Positions 5,958 through 39,747 of a stretch of DNA of 64,000 nt are shown piece by piece. The notes under the pieces are model-generated. The model searched no databases, had not been told where the DNA came from, and saw only the letters and a program-made list of their open reading frames with translations. Source of the DNA: a virus; the IMG/VR virus record IMGVR_UViG_3300045988_139374, positions 206,994-270,993 of that record. One strand, 5' to 3'. Numbering within the stretch: position 1 is the first letter of the stretch; each line of letters begins with the position of its first letter. Position numbers and translations under genes: made by a program.

Positions 5958-8900
5958 TTATTGAATATTATACCTATCTAATGGTAATGTAGGAATAATT
6001 TTTCTACACATGTTATCGATCTTCTTAGAACTATAAACTCCAATACCACCGATAAACATACTGAACAATCTATCATCAATGCTTTTATCAAGATCTCCAG
6101 GACTTACTAAACTGGCATCTTTAGTAACTCTAAGTTTCAAATTAGCAATTGCTAGGATAGTATAGACGAATTGGCTACACACCATCTCAGTTTTGTTCTT
6201 AAATTCATTTCCAAAGTCAGAAGCTTTCTTAAAGAAAATATTAATGATAGTCTTCATAGAATATTTGGTATCATCTTGATGCTTAATATACCAATCTACA
6301 GCATCTCTCATCATATCTCTCTGAGCTGCAGTGACAAACAATGCATGAACTTTGAATTTAATACTAGGATCAATTTTCCAATACTTCTCAATGGATTCAA
6401 TAGTGAATCCTGCAGACTTACCATCTGCAAAGACATTATTATTTGCATTGAAAGTATACATTTGTTTCATAGAAGAATCAAAGCTCATTGCTGCATGAGA
6501 CCATTCTGTATGAGTATACCATTCAATTGCTCTACTATGTAATGCTTTACCACTGAATAGGCAAATATACACAGGAACAATTTTATCCTTTAATTCTTCA
6601 TAAGTAGCTTTATTAAAAGAATGGATACTTTTGATATAATCTTCAGCATCAACTTCTCTAAAGATATGCATTGTATGCTTACTATTTCTAACTCTTTCCA
6701 ATGCTTCTTCATTAAATGGTATTTCAGGATTCCAACCAAGTATAGAGATTTCACTCTTGATTGCATTTTTTTGTTCAGAGTCACTAGTATTCTTCATTCT
6801 TACACAAAGTTCACTAATAACTCTTTTCCAAGAAGTTTCATCTACTACTTCTTCATGAGAAACATTTACATCAGAACTAAAATAATCAATTTTATCAGTA
6901 GGAGAATAATATTGATCAATAGGAGCAATAACCATATTAGAATTATCACTAGTATATCCATCTTGATTATTCATATATTTGGATAATAGTCTTGAATACA
7001 TAGTATCATTATCATATCCAAAGATATTATATGCAGTTCTGTTAGATAGAGTTCTCTTATCCTGATTAAGAGCAAGGTATTGATTATACTTTGTTTTCAA
7101 TCTATCAATATCTTCTTTACCTTTATTAGAAACAATATTATCTGGATAGATAAGTACTAGTCCATAATTCTTTTCTGCTTCCTCTGCTTGTTTAATTTTT
7201 GCTACATAAGTTGTAGCATCATCAGAAAAGACAGTATCATGGCTACTAGAAGTAGAAGCTTCATGAAGAGTATTTAGATTTGCTAGATTAGAAACCTGTT
7301 CTTCTAGTCTAGTAATAGGATCACCAAGAATAAAGGATCTTACCCCTTCACAGATATCTTGAATCTGTTCATCAAAACTCTGTACCTGCTCAAACCTAGT
7401 ATCATATTTAATTTGATCATCGGATAGAAGTTTAGAACCTTCTGTAAGCCTTCTATAGATATAGTCTCTAGAAACTTCTCCTGCAAAGAAAATCTTTCCA
7501 TAAGCTTCACACATTGCTAGCTCGTCATATAGCTCTTTTGCTGTTTGCTTATCTTTGATCTTAAACGTGGTATATTTTTTAGAGATTTTAGATTTATCAG
7601 TTTTAAAGACTTTATAGAATCCATGTTCCTCAGGATCTACAGAGTACATTGTATATTGTACAGGATCTTTAGTAATAGAATAATTAAATACATTATTTTG
7701 CATATGCTGGATAATATAATAATTATCTTTATCACATTCATAAGGAATAGGATTCGGAGTTAGAGGAATAGCAGATCCAATAGCACCAGACATAGACTCT
7801 GTAATCTTGCTATTAGTAATAAAAGGCTTAATCATTTTTTCATCTTCAGGAAGGCAAGCATTTACATAATCATTTAGATTCATACCATTCTTAATTTTAG
7901 AGCTATTTACAGAGCCAACATATAGATTTTTATAATTACCCCAAATCCATGCATTTGCAATAGCAATTTTAAGATCGAAAATACTATTATAAGGACCATG
8001 AATTCCAGTTTGTCCATACCAAGCATTTTCAATCCAATAATATTTTCCATTCTGCTTATAATAAGCAGCAGTATGAGTTTTTCCTCCAGGAGAATTTAGA
8101 TTATTATATTCAATTACAAATAATCTTCCATTAGAAATATCTTTAGTAGACAATTTACTATGAATATAATTTGCTTGATCGTGACAATCTCCATATCCAT
8201 ATTCTTCTACCTCTTCAGGAGATAGAAGAATTCCAGTAGATTTATATCTAATATTTGTATTCATCCAACTATAAAGCTCTTTAGGATAATTACTATTAGA
8301 TACAAATTCTAGCAAAGTAGATTCATTTACTTTAACAGGATTTGCTTCTAGGGTCATATAGTACAAATCATCGTCTTCATAATAGACTTTAAATCCATAT
8401 TCATCATAAATCATTTTAGCAAGTTTATTATTCTTATCCACAGAGAGATACTTGCAGTTCATAGTTTTAGTAGCGAAATCAAGAATCTGCTTACTCAAAC
8501 CATGACCCTTATAATCTTTCATAATATCTAAACTTACAATCCATTTAGTACCATCATCTAGATATTCGCAAGATCCTACTTGAGCTACTAGATTCTCTTT
8601 ATCAAACCACATGTAGCCGTCACATTTATAAGTATCAGTATCTTTACATCTAACATGGCGTAGATCAGGATACTGCTTTTTATACTTTTCAATGATAGTT
8701 TCAGTAATATGAACCCTCTTTAGAGAAGATAACTCAATTCTATCCTTAGGTTTAAAATTTCTATCTACGGTACTAGCAGTTTCTAGAAGCATACTTTCAT
8801 TAACTTTAATAACAGGATCCTTATATCTATGAGCCATGTTATACTTTAGTACTGCCATGATGCTCAATACCTGACTAAAGTCATTATTAACTACTCTTAC

Positions 8901-9617
8901 ATAGCTAAATTCATTAAGCTGCCTAATAGCTTCTTCCTTTGCTCTAAGCTTCAGCTCATCTTCTCCAGTACGATGAGGATGATTATTTGGATTACTTCCA
9001 CCATCTTTAATCTCAATAATAAGATTATAAGGAATATAATAGAAATCAGGAATATAAAGATGAGTCTTTCCTTCATATTGATATTTAATACTAGGAGCAG
9101 GAGCTAGAATATCTTCAGATTCACAATGCATTACTTGATCCATAAACTGAAGAAACTTTCTCTCATAGCTGCCAAAATACTCAATTTTTCCACCATCGGC
9201 GAAAGTATATTCTCCATGCATTTTACGTCCAGCTAGTGCTTTTCTCTGGACATATTCTGCATACTCAGGATCAGTCTGAAGACGTTCAGTACCATATTTC
9301 TTTTTTGTTCTTTCTGCAACCATCTTCTTATATGCTTCATGACATTTAGGATCATTACAGAGTCTTTCGTATCTTCCTTTATCTTCATTCCAATCAGTAA
9401 CATTGCCGCACATGATGCAATGTCCTTCAGTTTTATTATTAATAGTATTAAAAGCAACTCTAAGCGCAGTATATCCTTCAGGAATTAAATCTTCATGTTT
9501 TTCTTGAATATGAATATGAAGCTTTGCTCTTGTGAATCGTCCTTCACAATAAGGACACTTATATTTTTTCTGGTAAGTGCTCTTAGTAGCATTGGAAACC
9601 ATAGCTTCTGATTGCAT
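5958..9617 (-). CDS. multi-domain polyvalent protein: Zn-finger plus PD-(D/E)xK-like N-terminus, GNAT acetyltransferase, transglutaminase-like Cys protease, permuted papain-like (YiiX/NlpC-P60-type) C-terminus
   Basis: 1219-codon ORF with an AAGGAGG RBS. Motifs seen: CPYCEGRF...HIHIQEKH; YIPDF...IIEIKDGG; KDYKGHGLSKQILDF (GNAT Q/RxxGxG/A); GYGDCHDQANY...THTAAYY (Cys-His); SRAIEWYTHTEWSHAAMSF...VCSQFVY (permuted papain-like). Confidence 0.6.
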   Translation of the reverse strand: MQSEAMVSNATKSTYQKKYKCPYCEGRFTRAKLHIHIQEKHEDLIPEGYTALRVAFNTINNKTEGHCIMCGNVTDWNEDKGRYERLCNDPKCHEAYKKMVAERTKKKYGTERLQTDPEYAEYVQRKALAGRKMHGEYTFADGGKIEYFGSYERKFLQFMDQVMHCESEDILAPAPSIKYQYEGKTHLYIPDFYYIPYNLIIEIKDGGSNPNNHPHRTGEDELKLRAKEEAIRQLNEFSYVRVVNNDFSQVLSIMAVLKYNMAHRYKDPVIKVNESMLLETASTVDRNFKPKDRIELSSLKRVHITETIIEKYKKQYPDLRHVRCKDTDTYKCDGYMWFDKENLVAQVGSCEYLDDGTKWIVSLDIMKDYKGHGLSKQILDFATKTMNCKYLSVDKNNKLAKMIYDEYGFKVYYEDDDLYYMTLEANPVKVNESTLLEFVSNSNYPKELYSWMNTNIRYKSTGILLSPEEVEEYGYGDCHDQANYIHSKLSTKDISNGRLFVIEYNNLNSPGGKTHTAAYYKQNGKYYWIENAWYGQTGIHGPYNSIFDLKIAIANAWIWGNYKNLYVGSVNSSKIKNGMNLNDYVNACLPEDEKMIKPFITNSKITESMSGAIGSAIPLTPNPIPYECDKDNYYIIQHMQNNVFNYSITKDPVQYTMYSVDPEEHGFYKVFKTDKSKISKKYTTFKIKDKQTAKELYDELAMCEAYGKIFFAGEVSRDYIYRRLTEGSKLLSDDQIKYDTRFEQVQSFDEQIQDICEGVRSFILGDPITRLEEQVSNLANLNTLHEASTSSSHDTVFSDDATTYVAKIKQAEEAEKNYGLVLIYPDNIVSNKGKEDIDRLKTKYNQYLALNQDKRTLSNRTAYNIFGYDNDTMYSRLLSKYMNNQDGYTSDNSNMVIAPIDQYYSPTDKIDYFSSDVNVSHEEVVDETSWKRVISELCVRMKNTSDSEQKNAIKSEISILGWNPEIPFNEEALERVRNSKHTMHIFREVDAEDYIKSIHSFNKATYEELKDKIVPVYICLFSGKALHSRAIEWYTHTEWSHAAMSFDSSMKQMYTFNANNNVFADGKSAGFTIESIEKYWKIDPSIKFKVHALFVTAAQRDMMRDAVDWYIKHQDDTKYSMKTIINIFFKKASDFGNEFKNKTEMVCSQFVYTILAIANLKLRVTKDASLVSPGDLDKSIDDRLFSMFIGGIGVYSSKKIDNMCRKIIPTLPLDRYNIQ

Positions 9618-10153: not shown

Positions 10154-12100
10154 ATGAACGTAAACGATCTAAATCGTACAGATACTCAAAGAGTGGTAAT
10201 TTCTCAGCCTGGTGTATCTAATAATAATGCTACACAAAATATTAGTATTTCTGCTGTTAAGCCTGAAAACGCTCCTATTTCCATTAATGCAACCAATGGA
10301 GCTTCTGGAATTGAAGAAGATACTAATGGAAATCGACCCGTGATTAGAATTAATCCTAATCGTAGAAAGGGTCATCGCTCTGTTGGTGCTAATGAGACTA
10401 TTGAGACTGTGAATCCTGATGATTATATCCAGACTCAGACTAAGAAGGTAGATCCTAAGTTCTTCCAGGATAAGTATATGACTGAGCTAGATGCTGCAGT
10501 TGCTCGTAAGCAGCAGGAATATGTAGATGCTGTTGAAAGTATGAGCGCTCAAGATGCTGCTAATAGAGAAAAGGTTGAAGCAGGCCTAGAAGATGTCGGT
10601 GGCGAAATTCAGTATATGCCCGATCCTCTGCACCATCCTATGAGTGAAGATGAAAAGGTTAAGACTACTGCTCCTATTAATCCTAATCGTGGCATTGTTA
10701 CTGAAGATCTAGAAGATGAAGTTCTAGATAATGATGATGAGGAAGAAGAGATTTCTTCTCCTGTGAGAATTCAGGGTAGTGACTATCAGCCTATTAATGA
10801 TCCTTTCAATACTCCTGCACATCAGGCAGAGCCTACTTATGGTTCTGGACCTGAGTCTGATGAGGTAGATGAAGATATCGTTGATGATGAGCCTGTAGAA
10901 GAGGAAGAGATTATTCCTGAGGCTCATCCTTCTAAGGTTGAGGATCTTGACACTAAAGTTATTAGTGTTACTTCTGATGATCTAGAAGATATTGATGATT
11001 CTGACTTTGATGAAGAAGATGATGAAGATACAACTTACGATGATGATGAGGAGCAACAGAAGCTGTCTGAAGCTGCTGCTAATAATCTTCGTAATGATAT
11101 TATTACTAAGATTATTAATGCTGGCCGTAAGATGAATACTTCTCAGCTAGTTGTTTCTAATAAGGTCATTAATATTAAGGACGCTATGAAGAATATGAAG
11201 ACTACTACTGCTAAGACTGCAGTATGGCCTCTAATGTTTGCAAATCGTCCTTATATTGCATCTGCTCTTAAGGGTGCTGAGCTTGCTATGCTTAATGAGG
11301 ATAGTAATAATAATGGTATTATGACTGTGCCTCAGATGCAGATTCTCTTTGAGCACGATGTTAATCCAAATCGTCCTTCTACTGTTGAAGCTTGGGCTAA
11401 GACTATCCCTTATGCAGATTTGGACAATGTCTTTGCTGCACTATTTATGGCATCTCTTGACGGAGCTAATTTTATGCCTTGCAATTGCTCCAATGATAAG
11501 TGTCTGAATTCTTGGCTGTCTGATGATGTACCTATGGAGAAGCTCATGCACTTTACAGATGATGATACTAAGAAGAAGTTTGAAAAGATTAAGAAAATGG
11601 AACTAACTCCTGAAAACTCTGGAGCATATGAGTCCGTGGTTACTGTTATTAATAATAATCTAGCCGTTGGCGTTAAGATTCCTTCTCTGTATACAATTAT
11701 GTATGAAATTGGAGCTCTTGATGATGCATTCGTAAATAAGTATGAATCTATCATCAATATTACTCGCTTCATTGATCGTCTATATATGATTGATGAAAAT
11801 GGTAATATGTATCCCATTGGATGGAAAAAGTATCCTGGCGATCATGCTAAGTCTTTCAAGTCTAAGATTATCACTTATGCTAAGATTCTTAAGAATCTAG
11901 ATCCTGTTGAATTTGGCGTCGTATCTACTCTGATTATTACTATGATGAATAATATGCATGCCAATATTACTTATAGTATTCCTAAGTATACTTGTCCTAA
12001 GTGTGGCCATAGTAGCAACGAGGTTGAAGTGAGTCCTCGTAACCTACTTTTTTTGCGCCAGCAGTTGGTCCGTATAGCAACTTCTCTTGGAACAAAATAA
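10154..12100 (+). CDS. structural-module protein with acidic D/E-rich linker and C-terminal CPKCGH zinc-ribbon-like motif (zero-frame product)
   Basis: 648-codon ORF with a GAAGGAGA RBS. It carries a -1 slippery site 15 codons before its stop. Confidence 0.85.
   Translation: MNVNDLNRTDTQRVVISQPGVSNNNATQNISISAVKPENAPISINATNGASGIEEDTNGNRPVIRINPNRRKGHRSVGANETIETVNPDDYIQTQTKKVDPKFFQDKYMTELDAAVARKQQEYVDAVESMSAQDAANREKVEAGLEDVGGEIQYMPDPLHHPMSEDEKVKTTAPINPNRGIVTEDLEDEVLDNDDEEEEISSPVRIQGSDYQPINDPFNTPAHQAEPTYGSGPESDEVDEDIVDDEPVEEEEIIPEAHPSKVEDLDTKVISVTSDDLEDIDDSDFDEEDDEDTTYDDDEEQQKLSEAAANNLRNDIITKIINAGRKMNTSQLVVSNKVINIKDAMKNMKTTTAKTAVWPLMFANRPYIASALKGAELAMLNEDSNNNGIMTVPQMQILFEHDVNPNRPSTVEAWAKTIPYADLDNVFAALFMASLDGANFMPCNCSNDKCLNSWLSDDVPMEKLMHFTDDDTKKKFEKIKKMELTPENSGAYESVVTVINNNLAVGVKIPSLYTIMYEIGALDDAFVNKYESIINITRFIDRLYMIDENGNMYPIGWKKYPGDHAKSFKSKIITYAKILKNLDPVEFGVVSTLIITMMNNMHANITYSIPKYTCPKCGHSSNEVEVSPRNLLFLRQQLVRIATSLGTK
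12049..12055 (+). promoter_or_regulatory. candidate -1 programmed ribosomal frameshift heptamer T_TTT_TTG
   Basis: The zero-frame codons are ctT TTT TTG, which fits the X_XXY_YYZ pattern. The -1 frame opens at 12043 (after TAA 12040-12042) and stays open to 12279. Confidence 0.5.
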
Positions 12101-12279
12101 TTCTAGCACGACATTTTAAAGGTGCTACATCTATATCAGAACTGAATGATCTTCCTGTATATGAACTTCAAATGCTTAATTATATTTGTAATAAAGAAAG
12201 AGAAGAGGAAGCTAAACTTTCTGATAAAGAAAAAGGAGCTAGACAATTTGGTAGAATGATAGAAGACAATCTATCTTAA
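12055..12279 (+). CDS. -1 frame C-terminal extension of 10154-12100 (frameshift product)
   Basis: 74 sense codons plus stop in the -1 frame (APAVGPYSNFSWNKIILARHFKGATSISELNDLPVYELQMLNYICNKEREEEAKLSDKEKGARQFGRMIEDNLS). They fill an otherwise unannotated 190-nt gap and end just before the RBS of gene 12294. Confidence 0.5.
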   Translation, partial: APAVGPYSNFSWNKIILARHFKGATSISELNDLPVYELQMLNYICNKEREEEAKLSDKEKGARQFGRMIEDNLS

Positions 12280-12293
12280 AGGAGTAGCTTCTA

Positions 12294-12617
12294 ATGAATA
12301 TGCCTGATTTCATTGGACAGACATATCAAGCATCTGTTTATCCTATAGATGATATACTTAGATTCTTTGACCATTCTATGGCTATATATGACATCATTAA
12401 GAGCTATAATGTGACTGGTGTGTATGGTATCACAGATAACAACCATTATTCTCTTCAAATGCAAATTATGGCTGCTAATCCTGCCGATTTAGATAGTATG
12501 GTAAACTATATTAATTGTACTATTCATAATCGTAAGGATATGTATGGCAAAACATTTCAAGTAAATGCTCAATCTATAGGAACCTGTGCTAGTCTGTCTG
12601 TACAAGAGTGTCGCTAA
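12294..12617 (+). CDS. hypothetical protein
   Basis: 107-codon ORF with an AAAGGAG RBS and a downstream terminator. Confidence 0.8.
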   Translation: MNMPDFIGQTYQASVYPIDDILRFFDHSMAIYDIIKSYNVTGVYGITDNNHYSLQMQIMAANPADLDSMVNYINCTIHNRKDMYGKTFQVNAQSIGTCASLSVQECR

Positions 12618-12648
12618 ACTTCCAATTGCTTAGATATTATAAAAATGA

Positions 12649-12680
12649 GACCAATAGGAGAAATCCTATTGGTCTTTTAT
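12649..12680 (+). terminator. rho-independent terminator
   Basis: GACCAATAGGA pairs with TCCTATTGGTC, followed by TTTT. The hairpin resembles the one at 17339-17362. Confidence 0.8.
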
Positions 12681-35911: not shown

Positions 35912-38035
35912 ATGGTAACGTATTATGAAAACTATGGTCCGTATGTCCAATTGGCAAAAACAGGATATCAGGAGATTGAGTCTACTTCCTTGACTCCTGA
36001 TAATTATATGAGCAATTTTAATGGTATTCTTAATATCATGAAAGATGGCATTGAACAGCCTGATGTTCAAGCATATATGATTGGTGTACAATTTCCTCAT
36101 GACGATTTGTTGGGGCTTAATCGTAGTGATGAATTTGTAAAATTTACTCTTGTTGATTATTGGTATAATCTTCTGTTTTGGACATTTCCTATTTGTGCTG
36201 GAAATGTAATTACTGTAAGATATATTTTTGATACAAGAGCAATTACTAAAGGAGCTATTGTTTCGTTCTTTAATAAGCTTATTAAGAGCTATCGTAAGGA
36301 TATGAACTTTATGCTTCTTAATAATCTCCTTGATGATAGTATTTCTAAAATGAAAGAAATCGATACATTTGCATTGTATCTTGCAAATACTGTCAATTTT
36401 AAAGATACTATTAATCTAATGGAGAAATATCCTGAATTCAACGCATCTATGCATGCAGATCTTTCTGATACTCCTATCGAGGATGTCAAGTCTATCGGTA
36501 TGGATTATACAAACATGCAGATTAGATATATTAAGGATAATGATCATTGTTTGAGAGATTCTTTTGTATCTGGTGAGGCTATTTCTCCGAAACAGTTTAA
36601 GGAAGTGTCTGTCAACGTCGGTACTAAACCTGATGGTCAGGGAGGAATTTTTCCATATATCATCAATAATTCTTTTATGAATGGTGGTGTGGCAAATCCT
36701 GAATCCTATGTCATTGACTCTTCTGTTGGTAGAATTGCACAGATCTTGCAGAAGATGAATGTCGGTACCTCTGGTGCATTTGCACGATTGCTTGAAACTA
36801 ATAATTTGGATACATTCTTAAACGATGATCCTAATTATACTTGTAATACTGCAAACTTCATTGAAATTACTATTAAGGATGCTAAATTCCTGAGGCTTTA
36901 TGATAAGAGATACTATAAGATCAATCCTCATGGCGTTGATTATCTATTGGATGCGGATAGAGACACTCATCTGATTGGTAAAACTTTGTATTTCAGATCT
37001 CCTATCACTTGTCAATCTTATGCTAGAGGCACTGGTATTTGCCATAAGTGTTATGGAGATCTGTATTATACAAATAGGGATATCAATCCTGGTAAGTTGG
37101 CTGCTGAGTTATTGTCCGAAAAATATACTCAAATGCTATTGTCTGCAAAACATCTATTGGAATCTGCTGTAGTTGAAATGAAGTGGAATCCGGAATTCTT
37201 TGATATCTTTAATATCGAATTGAATACTATCAATATTGATGAAGATACCGATGTATCTGGATTCTTTATGATTCTTGATTCTTCTAAATTCGATTCAGAT
37301 GATGATGATGACTCTGATGGTATCATTTATGAAGAATTTACCCCTTCTTTTGATATTAGATATCCTGATGGTCATGTAGTTACTTTCCATACTGTAGATG
37401 AGGATAATATTTATCTTACTGAAGATTTAAATAGAGTCCTTAAATCTAAGAAAGCAAAAGAAGATGATGGAATCTATACTATTCCTTTGGATGCGGTTAA
37501 ATCTCTTCCTAGTATTTTTACAGTAAAGATTCAGAATAAGGAGCTTCAGAGAACTCTGGAAAGATCTAAGCATATTATTGATAGAGAGAAAGATACTTCC
37601 TCTTTCAATAAGAATACTATCGTCAGTGAATTTATCAATGCAAACCTTGAAGGTGGATTGGTAATTTCTGCTGTGCATCTGGAAGTTCTTCTGTCTAATC
37701 AGATGAGAGATCCTGATAATATTCTTGAAATGCCTAACTGGGCTATTGAGAATGCTCCTTATAAGATTCTTACTCTTAGCTCTGCATTGAACTATTCTCC
37801 GAGTATTACCGTTAACTTTGAATATCAGAGAGTAGGTAAGACTCTAGTTTCTCCGCTATCTACAAAGAAGCATAAACCTTCTATCTTCGATCTTTACTTT
37901 ATGGAAAAGCCTCAGGACTTTATGGTTAACACTGAAATGGTTTCTGATAAGTTCCATGAGAAAGATGAGTATGATATGAAGGGTAATAAAGATGCTATCT
38001 ATTTTGTTACGCCTGACAAAGGTAGCAAAGATTAA
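35912..38035 (+). CDS. multisubunit RNA polymerase beta-prime C-terminal-half homologue
   Basis: SSVGRIAQILQKMNVGTSGAFARLLE (bridge-helix-like) is followed by RSPITCQSYARGTGICHKCYGDLYY..GKLAAELLSEKYTQMLLSAKH. This is colinear with E. coli RpoC [47 protein letters not shown] (recalled from memory). Confidence 0.6.
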   Translation: MVTYYENYGPYVQLAKTGYQEIESTSLTPDNYMSNFNGILNIMKDGIEQPDVQAYMIGVQFPHDDLLGLNRSDEFVKFTLVDYWYNLLFWTFPICAGNVITVRYIFDTRAITKGAIVSFFNKLIKSYRKDMNFMLLNNLLDDSISKMKEIDTFALYLANTVNFKDTINLMEKYPEFNASMHADLSDTPIEDVKSIGMDYTNMQIRYIKDNDHCLRDSFVSGEAISPKQFKEVSVNVGTKPDGQGGIFPYIINNSFMNGGVANPESYVIDSSVGRIAQILQKMNVGTSGAFARLLETNNLDTFLNDDPNYTCNTANFIEITIKDAKFLRLYDKRYYKINPHGVDYLLDADRDTHLIGKTLYFRSPITCQSYARGTGICHKCYGDLYYTNRDINPGKLAAELLSEKYTQMLLSAKHLLESAVVEMKWNPEFFDIFNIELNTINIDEDTDVSGFFMILDSSKFDSDDDDDSDGIIYEEFTPSFDIRYPDGHVVTFHTVDEDNIYLTEDLNRVLKSKKAKEDDGIYTIPLDAVKSLPSIFTVKIQNKELQRTLERSKHIIDREKDTSSFNKNTIVSEFINANLEGGLVISAVHLEVLLSNQMRDPDNILEMPNWAIENAPYKILTLSSALNYSPSITVNFEYQRVGKTLVSPLSTKKHKPSIFDLYFMEKPQDFMVNTEMVSDKFHEKDEYDMKGNKDAIYFVTPDKGSKD

Positions 38036-38046
38036 TTAAAAAGAGA

Positions 38047-38082
38047 CCGGAGAGAACTTAAACTCTCCGGCCTTTTATTTTT
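38047..38082 (+). terminator. rho-independent terminator
   Basis: CCGGAGAG pairs with CTCTCCGG, followed by a T-run. Confidence 0.8.
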
Positions 38083-38097
38083 AGAAAGTGTGATCAT

Positions 38098-39747
38098 ATG
38101 GTATATAAATCTATTGATGATTATAAAATGGTAGTCCATAATTCATCAATTGTTATTAATCATTGTAAACTAACTGATTTTCCTACACTGATTAGACAAT
38201 TTGGGGTATGGGATAAAGTTTGCCATCGAGTAAATTATATAGGAATTCATTATGATCCAGAAAAACAGAGACTCTTTTTACCAAGAGGAATTGATGTAGA
38301 TTATGTAAGGCGTAAAGTAGAATCTACAATGGATCCAGATGAATTCTCTTCTTATATTGCTCGATATAATCACTATGATAAAGTATCTAAGAGAATTAAA
38401 ATGAAGATGCTTCCTAGGGATGATGTTCAAAAAGAAGCATTAAATTTTGGTCTCTGTAAAGGAAAGTACTATTGCAATAGTGGTAAGACTCAATTTGCTA
38501 TAAATCTTACTACTGGTAAAGGAAAGACTTATATTGCATCTTGTATTATGAGTTATCTAGGAATCAGATCTATTGTAATTACTTCTCAGTCTGGTATTCT
38601 AGACCAATGGAGAGAAAAGGTTAAAGAATATACTGATATTGATGATTCTGAAATCGTAAAGATTGAAGGAGGGCCAATGATTGGTAGAATTCTTAATGAT
38701 TCTTCTATGATGACTAATAAGTCTTTATATCTTTGCACACATTCTACTTTACAGACTTATGGCTCTACTCATGGTTGGGATAAAGTAGGTTTATTATTTG
38801 AAAAACTTGGTATTGGAATTAAGTTTTTTGATGAAGCACATCAGAATTTCCAAAACATGGCGTTGATAGATTTTGCAACTAGAGATGTTTGGAGAACTTA
38901 TTATATTACTGCTACTCCTTCTAGATCTGATAGACAAGAGGATATTATTTATAAACTTTATATGAAGAATGTCCCATCCATTAATCTATTCAATCCAGAA
39001 GTGGATGCCCATACTAGCTATATTGCAATTAAGTATAATTCGTATCCTACACCTTCTGATGTAAATGCTTGTAAGAATAATGTATATGGTTTAAGCAATC
39101 CATTATATATTGATTATCTGATGAGAAACAATAGATTTTGGATTATGTTTGATTATATCTTCTCTCTGATTTATAGATCTGGTGGTAAAGCATTATTCTA
39201 TATTGGTACTAATTCAGCAATTGAAAAAGTATATGAAAGGATTATGTTTAATTATCCTGAATTATGGAATGATGTTGGAATCTATACTTCTATTAGTGAA
39301 GATAAACAGCAAGCAAAAACCAAGAAATATATTCTTACAACTACTAAGTCTGCAGGTGCTGGTGAAGATATTCCTGACTTAAAATATTCTGTAGTTTTGG
39401 CAGAACCTTTTAAATCTGAAGTCATCACTAGACAGACTCTAGGAAGAACTAGAAATCCTAATACTTCCTATATAGAACTCGTAGATGTCGGTTTTAGACA
39501 GCTTCAGGGATTCTTCAATGCTAAGAGACACATTTTCAATAAATATGCCTCAAAATCAAAAGTCATGTTCGTAGATAATCCTAAATTGGCTAATATAGAC
39601 GAAGAGACTAGGATTCAGATGCGTGATAGATTCAAATATCAACTAGAATTCAATGTTCCTAATAATATTGAAGCTATTAGCTTCATTAAGGAAAAGAATA
39701 TTCCTGCTGTATATTTTGCATCTGAGATTCAAGAGAGAAAGGAGTAA
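38098..39747 (+). CDS. superfamily 2 (DEAH-type) DNA/RNA helicase
   Basis: Motifs present: Walker A TGKGKTY, DEAH box FFDEAHQ, motif III TATPSR, motif V TTTKSAGAGEDIP, motif VI QTLGRTRN. Confidence 0.75.
   Translation: MVYKSIDDYKMVVHNSSIVINHCKLTDFPTLIRQFGVWDKVCHRVNYIGIHYDPEKQRLFLPRGIDVDYVRRKVESTMDPDEFSSYIARYNHYDKVSKRIKMKMLPRDDVQKEALNFGLCKGKYYCNSGKTQFAINLTTGKGKTYIASCIMSYLGIRSIVITSQSGILDQWREKVKEYTDIDDSEIVKIEGGPMIGRILNDSSMMTNKSLYLCTHSTLQTYGSTHGWDKVGLLFEKLGIGIKFFDEAHQNFQNMALIDFATRDVWRTYYITATPSRSDRQEDIIYKLYMKNVPSINLFNPEVDAHTSYIAIKYNSYPTPSDVNACKNNVYGLSNPLYIDYLMRNNRFWIMFDYIFSLIYRSGGKALFYIGTNSAIEKVYERIMFNYPELWNDVGIYTSISEDKQQAKTKKYILTTTKSAGAGEDIPDLKYSVVLAEPFKSEVITRQTLGRTRNPNTSYIELVDVGFRQLQGFFNAKRHIFNKYASKSKVMFVDNPKLANIDEETRIQMRDRFKYQLEFNVPNNIEAISFIKEKNIPAVYFASEIQERKE

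Follow-up and report, generated by a model that had tools for sequence, protein, structure and literature searches.

Several well-described genes use a −1 slip near their 3′ end to make isoforms that differ at the C-terminus, including 10A/10B of bacteriophage T7, a capsid gene, and Escherichia coli dnaX (tau/gamma), where the slip on A_AAA_AAG is accompanied by an upstream Shine–Dalgarno (SD) sequence and a downstream hairpin. The lambda G/GT and P2 E/E+E′ tail chaperones similarly derive a short and a C-terminally extended product from one mRNA, with a layout kept across highly diverged phages though sequences and heptamers vary, and often without an obvious stimulatory structure; 2397 of the 2476 annotated frameshifted genes in the PRFect phage training set are of the tail-chaperone type (PMC10885494). 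Outside bacterial systems, the cardiovirus 2B* frameshift (EMCV, encephalomyocarditis virus; TMEV, Theiler's murine encephalomyelitis virus) uses G_GUU_UUU (PMC4524249, PMC5472766). The locus considered here lies in a window of 64,000 nucleotides (nt) from IMG/VR virus record IMGVR_UViG_3300045988_139374 (positions 206,994 to 270,993), the closing part of a phage record that is 271 kb long and carries direct terminal repeats. A gene in this window, encoding a protein of 648 amino acids (aa), carries a U-run close to its 3′ end that is probably (about 0.8) the site of a programmed −1 frameshift conserved across a family of uncultured human-gut jumbo phages.

The zero-frame codons at the site read ..AAC CTA CTT TTT TTG CGC.., with a run of seven T at 12048–12054 and the heptamer T_TTT_TTG at 12049–12055 in the correct X_XXY_YYZ phase. 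From the TAA at 12040–12042 the −1 frame is open up to the TAA at 12277–12279, past the zero-frame stop of the 648-aa gene (TAA, 12098–12100), and 12101–12293 holds no other open reading frame (ORF) with a sensible start, the sole in-frame ATG in this gap (12172) having no SD and a potential product of 35 aa. The statements of a preliminary description on the T-run, the phase of the heptamer, the −1 stops, the gap, the ribosome-binding site of the next gene and the presence of a small hairpin were all correct on re-reading, and its core claim, a −1 shift at the T-run adding an alternative C-terminus of ~75 codons, is well supported on comparison: by the way the two frames relate, by a −1 frame that stays open, by the missing start and by the dual-coding conservation described below.

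For the ribosomal nature of the shift, its exact site, its efficiency and the roles of the two isoforms, we infer the following course. Most ribosomes would stay in the zero frame to its TAA and make the 648-aa protein, whose last 15 residues form the conserved C-terminal helix; a fraction would move back one nucleotide on the U-run as tRNA-Phe decodes UUU at 12050–12052, read on in the −1 frame, first across the 15-codon dual-coding overlap and then for another 59 codons, and terminate at 12277–12279 with a predicted transframe protein of 708 aa (633 + 75 aa), in which the terminal helix would be exchanged for a four-helix domain of ~75 residues. The trans-frame junction reads ..NLLFF/APAVGPY, with NLLFFAPAVGPYSNFSWNK as its predicted tryptic junction peptide; its counterparts in other clades would read ..VFYATAIGG... 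A tandem P/A-site slip on U_UUU_UUG would be possible in the window's clade; for the other clades the candidates are G_GUU_UUU and G_CUU_UUU, or else slippage of tRNA-Phe alone on U_UUU.

The comparison rests on 54 related loci, 41 of them distinct, which were gathered from collections of viral and metagenomic sequence. They stem from independent assemblies, and most are from the human gut; across them the 648-aa-type protein is 36–99% identical. Gene order is constant, comprising a 124-aa gene, the big gene, a ‘gap’ of ~190 nt and a 107-aa gene with a strong SD, and in 54 of 54 loci a downstream ORF lies in the −1 frame of the big gene and reaches back over the zero-frame stop to the codon pair [C/G]TT TTT, a conservation that the preliminary description had proposed to check. 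Recurring in all 54 related loci, the two-frame arrangement is, judged from sequence, far beyond chance. The −1 product follows the consensus ..RKI.LARHFKGA.S[IM].ELD.LPLYELQ.LYY.[FW]WKEKE.E.KM....GRMIEDN*, and the unique part of its ORF is under purifying selection, diverging by 0.54 at codon position 3 versus 0.36 and 0.27 at positions 1 and 2, with Arg codons swapping between CGN and AGR from the first codon past the zero-frame stop and with indels, a 4-codon one among them, in multiples of three.

The zero-frame terminus is conserved in its own right. A query with the fused 708-aa protein returned 135 homologues, of which the 120 listed are 45–99% identical; each of these 120 covers only ~82% of the query, none reaches into the −1 product, and all share the zero-frame tail LRQQLVRIATSLGTK as their conserved protein end, with the C-terminal pattern ..F.RQ[QR]LV..AT..[EK]*. 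After the T-run, close relatives have the tail ..LLFLRQQLVRIATSLGTK and distant relatives ..LVFMRQRLVELATTPTEK, and the position of the zero-frame stop is the same in all lineages. As the homologue ends align to this tail, zero-frame reading 3′ of the run yields a protein terminus that is conserved. The alternative offered by the preliminary description, a homopolymer error in the assembly of a genome that truly has eight T and a single long ORF, is barely credible against this background: homopolymers are error-prone in some sequencing chemistries, yet the seven-T run is identical in 14 loci from independent assemblies, lineages with five T share the two-frame layout, the residues that follow the run make up a conserved terminus with its stop at one place in all lineages, and no clear fusion occurs among the 120 listed homologues of the 135 or in a search of representative sequences. 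In the latter, which gave 15 matches from 1.84 billion representatives, no sequence was clearly fused in frame to a gene of the 648-aa family, the long matches (404–1261 aa) being weak and in multiple stretches, and only the repetitive 404-aa one having been read. The seven-T run and the T_TTT_TTG phase are, on this sequence comparison, real.

Across the family the pair [C/G]TT TTT is kept in 54 of 54 loci, with seven T in 14 and five in 40. The label of a canonical heptamer therefore stands for the window's clade, where T_TTT_TTG is identical base for base in 14 independently assembled loci, and fails family-wide, since the five-T loci comprise 24 with G_GTT_TTT (21 plus L055–L057) and 16 with G_CTT_TTT; the slip sequence is in the correct zero-frame phase throughout. 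The TTT at 12050–12052 (F633) is an invariant slip codon (15 of 15 representatives); at other columns with conserved Phe, both TTT and TTC occur. Stops in the −1 frame come as near as two codons 5′ of this TTT, and in the window's clade the frame is open for just two codons upstream, so that the U-run is left as the sole shared slippery sequence. What all candidate sites have in common is that tRNA-Phe, paired to UUU, can pair again with the UUU that lies one base back, and every slip type considered would yield the same junction, ..L/V-F-[F/Y]-A... Other sites were considered and rejected: a slip at A_AAR followed by the stop is absent from L002, L003, L005, L010, L012, L037–L040, L046, L051 and L052 and so is not a shared site, and for a hop of the T4 gene 60 type from the last sense codon neither take-off nor landing codons are conserved.

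The same ..LFFAPAV.. protein would result if the phage RNA polymerase added a U on the seven-T run and a subset of mRNAs encoded the fusion, but this is very unlikely. Seven T lie at the lower edge of the range for polymerase slippage, a conserved long homopolymer (usually of at least 8–9) is not found here, and 40 of the 54 loci keep an identical −1 architecture with five T, too short for appreciable polymerase slippage. At best, transcriptional slippage might supplement the ribosomal kind in the clade of the window; it cannot explain the lineages with five T.

The stretch between the T-run and the zero-frame stop, about 15–16 codons, was analysed in 18 representative lineages, using 151 gap-free segments of 13 codons from the last 320 codons. 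Only five of the 151 segments lack −1 stops in every one of the 18 lineages, and all five begin at or just after the T-run; upstream of the overlap, the density of −1 stops is 0.09–0.22 per codon. Identity in the −1 frame is 0.56 in the overlap versus a maximum of 0.45 in 143 control segments, even those with higher zero-frame identity, which places the overlap 5–6 standard deviations above the regression. Under synonymous shuffling, with each lineage's own amino acids and codon usage, the overlap is open by chance in 7–68% per lineage. Synonymous sites of the zero frame are frozen (CAG in 15 of 15, TTG in 13 of 15, GCG in 14 of 15 and ACT in 15 of 15), often at codons that are otherwise disfavoured, and substitutions with a radical effect on the zero-frame residue leave the −1 residue unchanged or conservatively replaced (CGA to CAA; GCG to CTG in L056). 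The distant L055–L057 also conserve the −1 frame in the overlap (FYTSAIGGVTDY..). Its openness, its −1 identity and its frozen synonymous sites show that the overlap codes in both frames, starting at the U-run, with purifying selection on both frames in diverged relatives, a pattern predicted by a frameshift at the run and not by an independently initiated downstream gene.

Independent initiation was also sought in the −1 ORF itself, which is open from the slip site without a start or ribosome-binding site of its own. At any alignment column, ATG, GTG or TTG is present in at most 19 of the 41 distinct loci; where a canonical start first appears varies between codons 3 and 56, almost never with an SD, and the next gene always has one of the AGGAG type. 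Gene callers report ‘genes’ of 41–59 aa in some relatives, beginning at whichever Met occurs. A separate gene of ~60 aa, expressed by termination–reinitiation near the upstream stop from a non-canonical start (mostly AUA, AUU or GUA, with AUG in a few), could account for such calls, of which some relatives have 45–51-aa examples, and for L055 and L056, where a TAATG (L055:2999–3003; L056:2383–2387) places a −1-frame ATG across the big gene's stop and gene callers predict a 59-aa protein, which could therefore also arise by translational coupling. Such a gene is nonetheless unlikely as the general explanation: in most lineages the corresponding codon is ATA, GTA, ATC or another, with no conserved start and no SDs, the called ATGs sit at differing positions that vary between M, I and L, and reinitiation needs no open or conserved −1 frame ahead of the stop, yet all lineages have one from the T-run. 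Even in L055 and L056 the −1 frame upstream of the TAATG is still open and conserved. Neither a promoter nor a terminator was found between the 648-aa gene and the −1 ORF. An internal AUU start like that of T4 gp26′ was rejected, as this ATT lacks an SD and gives way to GTT or ACT in the clade of the window.

Several observations weigh against programmed frameshifting. The TAATG in the two distant loci makes independent coupled initiation conceivable at least there, and, judged by what is slippery in E. coli, the run of five T found in most family members makes a weak slip site. No stimulatory element was recognised, whether a 3′ hairpin or pseudoknot 5–9 nt away or a 5′ SD-like sequence: for the 100 nt surrounding and following the site RNAalifold gave 0 consensus pairs, in 11 of 12 lineages the RNA is folded no more stably than its shuffled versions (z-scores near 0), and the upstream alignment columns, inspected by eye, show no conserved SD-like stimulator. 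The 5-bp hairpin AGTTG/CAACT, present in the window 7 nt 3′ of the heptamer, had been pointed out in the preliminary description; a role for it as stimulator is not supported, the downstream RNA of the window folding no better than chance (z-scores 0.30 and 0.66 versus shuffles), the central pair being broken in 22 of 25 relatives and covariation being absent. A strong hairpin in a single lineage (L014:4564–4596; GCGAU.GGUGGAGUU-AGC-GACUUCACC.AUCGC; −19.7 kcal/mol, z −3.5) begins ~8 nt past the Phe TTT slip codon, with its GGUG inner stem ~14 nt past; as a stimulator, this GGUG..CACC hairpin was rejected as clade-specific and without covariation. Stimulatory elements are common in this class of recoding but not obligatory. 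Conservation of the primary sequence 3′ of the site is explained at least in part by dual coding.

Programmed frameshifting at the U-run would share with the lambda G/GT and P2 E/E+E′ chaperones a −1 slip near the 3′ end, a short and a C-terminally extended product from one mRNA, a layout preserved while sequences and heptamers diverge, and the lack of an obvious stimulatory structure seen in many tail-chaperone genes. The zero-frame product is, however, 648 aa long versus ~100–150 aa in tail chaperones, no tail-chaperone family is matched in PHROG or Pfam, the gene does not lie between a tail tube gene and a tape-measure gene as G/GT does, and its overlap is clearly dual-coding, unlike that of tail-chaperone frameshifts. 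The −1 slip near the 3′ end and the C-terminally differing isoforms also recall T7 10A/10B and dnaX, although no capsid fold was found for the 648-aa protein and neither the upstream SD nor the downstream hairpin of dnaX is conserved; the analogies to G/GT and 10A/10B, both drawn in the preliminary description, are mechanistic only. With cardioviruses, 24 of the 54 loci share G_GTT_TTT in the same phase and the lack of a standard, closely spaced structure. The cardiovirus shift is eukaryotic and needs the viral 2A protein bound to a downstream stem–loop, spaced 13–14 nt from the slip site, whereas no conserved stem–loop was detected here and the remaining clades carry G_CTT_TTT or T_TTT_TTG.

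In an AlphaFold2 model of the 648-aa protein (40-sequence alignment), residues ~350–645 are folded, with a predicted local distance difference test score (pLDDT) of ~80–89, and the zero-frame tail forms the last helix (628–643); the C-terminal domain carries a zinc-ribbon-like CxC...CPKCG pair. The N-terminal half is acidic and predicted to be disordered except for a long helix (104–142). Over 10154–11200 of the window it is of low complexity, and it varies in length among relatives (605–744 aa for the total protein). For the −1 product (76 aa), a 25-sequence alignment gave a four-helix model with a pLDDT of 81, in which the transframe isoform would swap the terminal helix for a small helical domain. 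Profile searches of the 648-aa protein and the −1 product against Pfam, PHROG, NCBIfam and PDB gave no match; fold searches gave nothing below E 0.26 in the PDB for the AlphaFold2 model, with no capsid fold, and nothing below E 0.29 in BFVD for the extension domain. The 648-aa model matches uncharacterised ‘Myoviridae sp.’ proteins in BFVD (E down to 8.5e-27) and, weakly, a ‘Baseplate hub assembly protein, bacteriophage T4-like’ (E 1.6e-5; TM-score 0.23 on the query and 0.43 on the target; root-mean-square deviation 8.2). With a weak fold match and non-significant profiles, the description of the gene as structural, which had no Pfam, PHROG or NCBIfam match behind it, is thus a possibility, not a finding.

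On the predicted model, the 648-aa protein may be a distant analogue of T4 gp26, the baseplate-hub assembly chaperone. Both carry a CxC...CP[KE]CG pair followed by a short C-terminal helix; T4 gp26 (L058:7803–8429) ends ..VPIKCPECGKTHAHVIRGLKEFFELL, mirroring ..IPKYTCPKCGHSS..NLLFLRQQLVRIATSLGTK of the 648-aa protein, which has an additional N-terminal half of ~350 residues. Homology to T4 gp26 or gp51 was considered and rejected, hhalign giving no significant result (gp26 probability 2–5%), and no PF12322 match at E ≤ 1 was found in Pfam searches of 40 family members, for which the T4 gp26 control scores 8.8e-64. T4 gene 26 (PF12322) also yields two products, gp26 and gp26′, but through an in-frame internal start and not a frameshift. 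If the protein were a gp26 analogue, its two isoforms would act at a fixed ratio in virion assembly. A bolder proposal, which we regard as distinctly unlikely, makes it the jumbo-phage counterpart of gp26 and the frameshift the hub equivalent of the lambda G/GT rule, with two chaperone isoforms in fixed ratio, of which the extended one would dock a partner protein through its extension. Without RNA structure, slipping on G_GUU_UUU or U_UUU would then depend on a phage factor acting in trans or on the conserved sequence CAGCGAUUGGUG..GCGACUAC 3′ of the site, as it does on 2A in cardioviruses. Should it hold, it would represent protein- or sequence-directed frameshifting in a bacterial virus.

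Coordinates of the locus are collected in Table 1. The hairpin just 3′ of the 107-aa gene is a perfect 13-bp, bidirectional terminator-like structure. Neighbours of the 648-aa gene are a polyvalent nuclease/acetyltransferase protein and small genes of no assigned function; the former, of 1219 aa (5958–9617, minus strand), matches endonuclease phrog_15137 (1.5e-42) and acetyltransferase PHROGs, is of a polyvalent type seen in jumbo phages, and in one relative also has a NUDIX domain. Further along the window (35912–39747) are two genes, one resembling that of the RNA polymerase beta subunit (phrog_3015, 6e-48) and one for a DNA helicase (phrog_16), the first of which suggests that the phage probably transcribes with its own polymerase. 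An Rfam search of 11900–12400 and a tRNA search across the 64-kb window gave no match. No close DNA or protein matches were found among cultured phages, a scan of a viral contig collection with a single protein found nothing, and viral-contig scans with distant small-ORF proteins gave no useful loci.

Table 1. Features of the 648-aa gene, its −1 ORF and the adjoining downstream region, in window positions.
Feature	Position	Strand	Description
Zero-frame gene, 648 aa	10154..12100	+	ORF; all homologues (36–99% identity) share its zero-frame C-terminus
TAA closing the −1 frame	12040..12042	+	Two codons 5′ of the slip codon; 5′ limit for any shift site
Slip region CTT TTT TTG	12047..12055	+	CTT 12047–49, TTT 12050–52, TTG 12053–55
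Dual-coding overlap	12056..12100	+	Zero frame, conserved tail RQQLVRIATSLGTK*; −1 frame, APAVGPYSNFSWNKI
−1 ORF, unique part	12101..12279	+	ILARHFKGATSISELNDLPVYELQMLNYICNKEREEEAKLSDKEKGARQFGRMIEDNLS*; putative helical domain that extends the transframe isoform; protein sequence conserved in every relative
SD AGGAG (12280–12284) and next gene (ATG 12294, 107 aa)	12280..12617	+	Syntenic in all relatives; 3′ limit of the extension
Terminator-like hairpin, end of transcription unit	12647..12676	not assigned	Sequence

The recoding event is annotated in none of the assemblies examined, and the gene family, which belongs to common human-gut jumbo phages of ~220–290 kb, has not previously been linked to recoding. 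Almost all annotated phage frameshifts are in tail-chaperone genes (PMC10885494); programmed frameshifting here would place an equally conserved recoding event in a different, large and otherwise unannotated gene family, and would correct the annotation of dozens of assemblies in which the extension is missed or miscalled as an orphan of 41–59 aa. A weak-looking site (five T, G_GUU_UUU) with no detectable RNA stimulator and strong dual-coding selection would offer a test case for how bacterial ribosomes shift frame, and the two predicted isoforms point to a function of fixed stoichiometry, possibly in baseplate-hub assembly.

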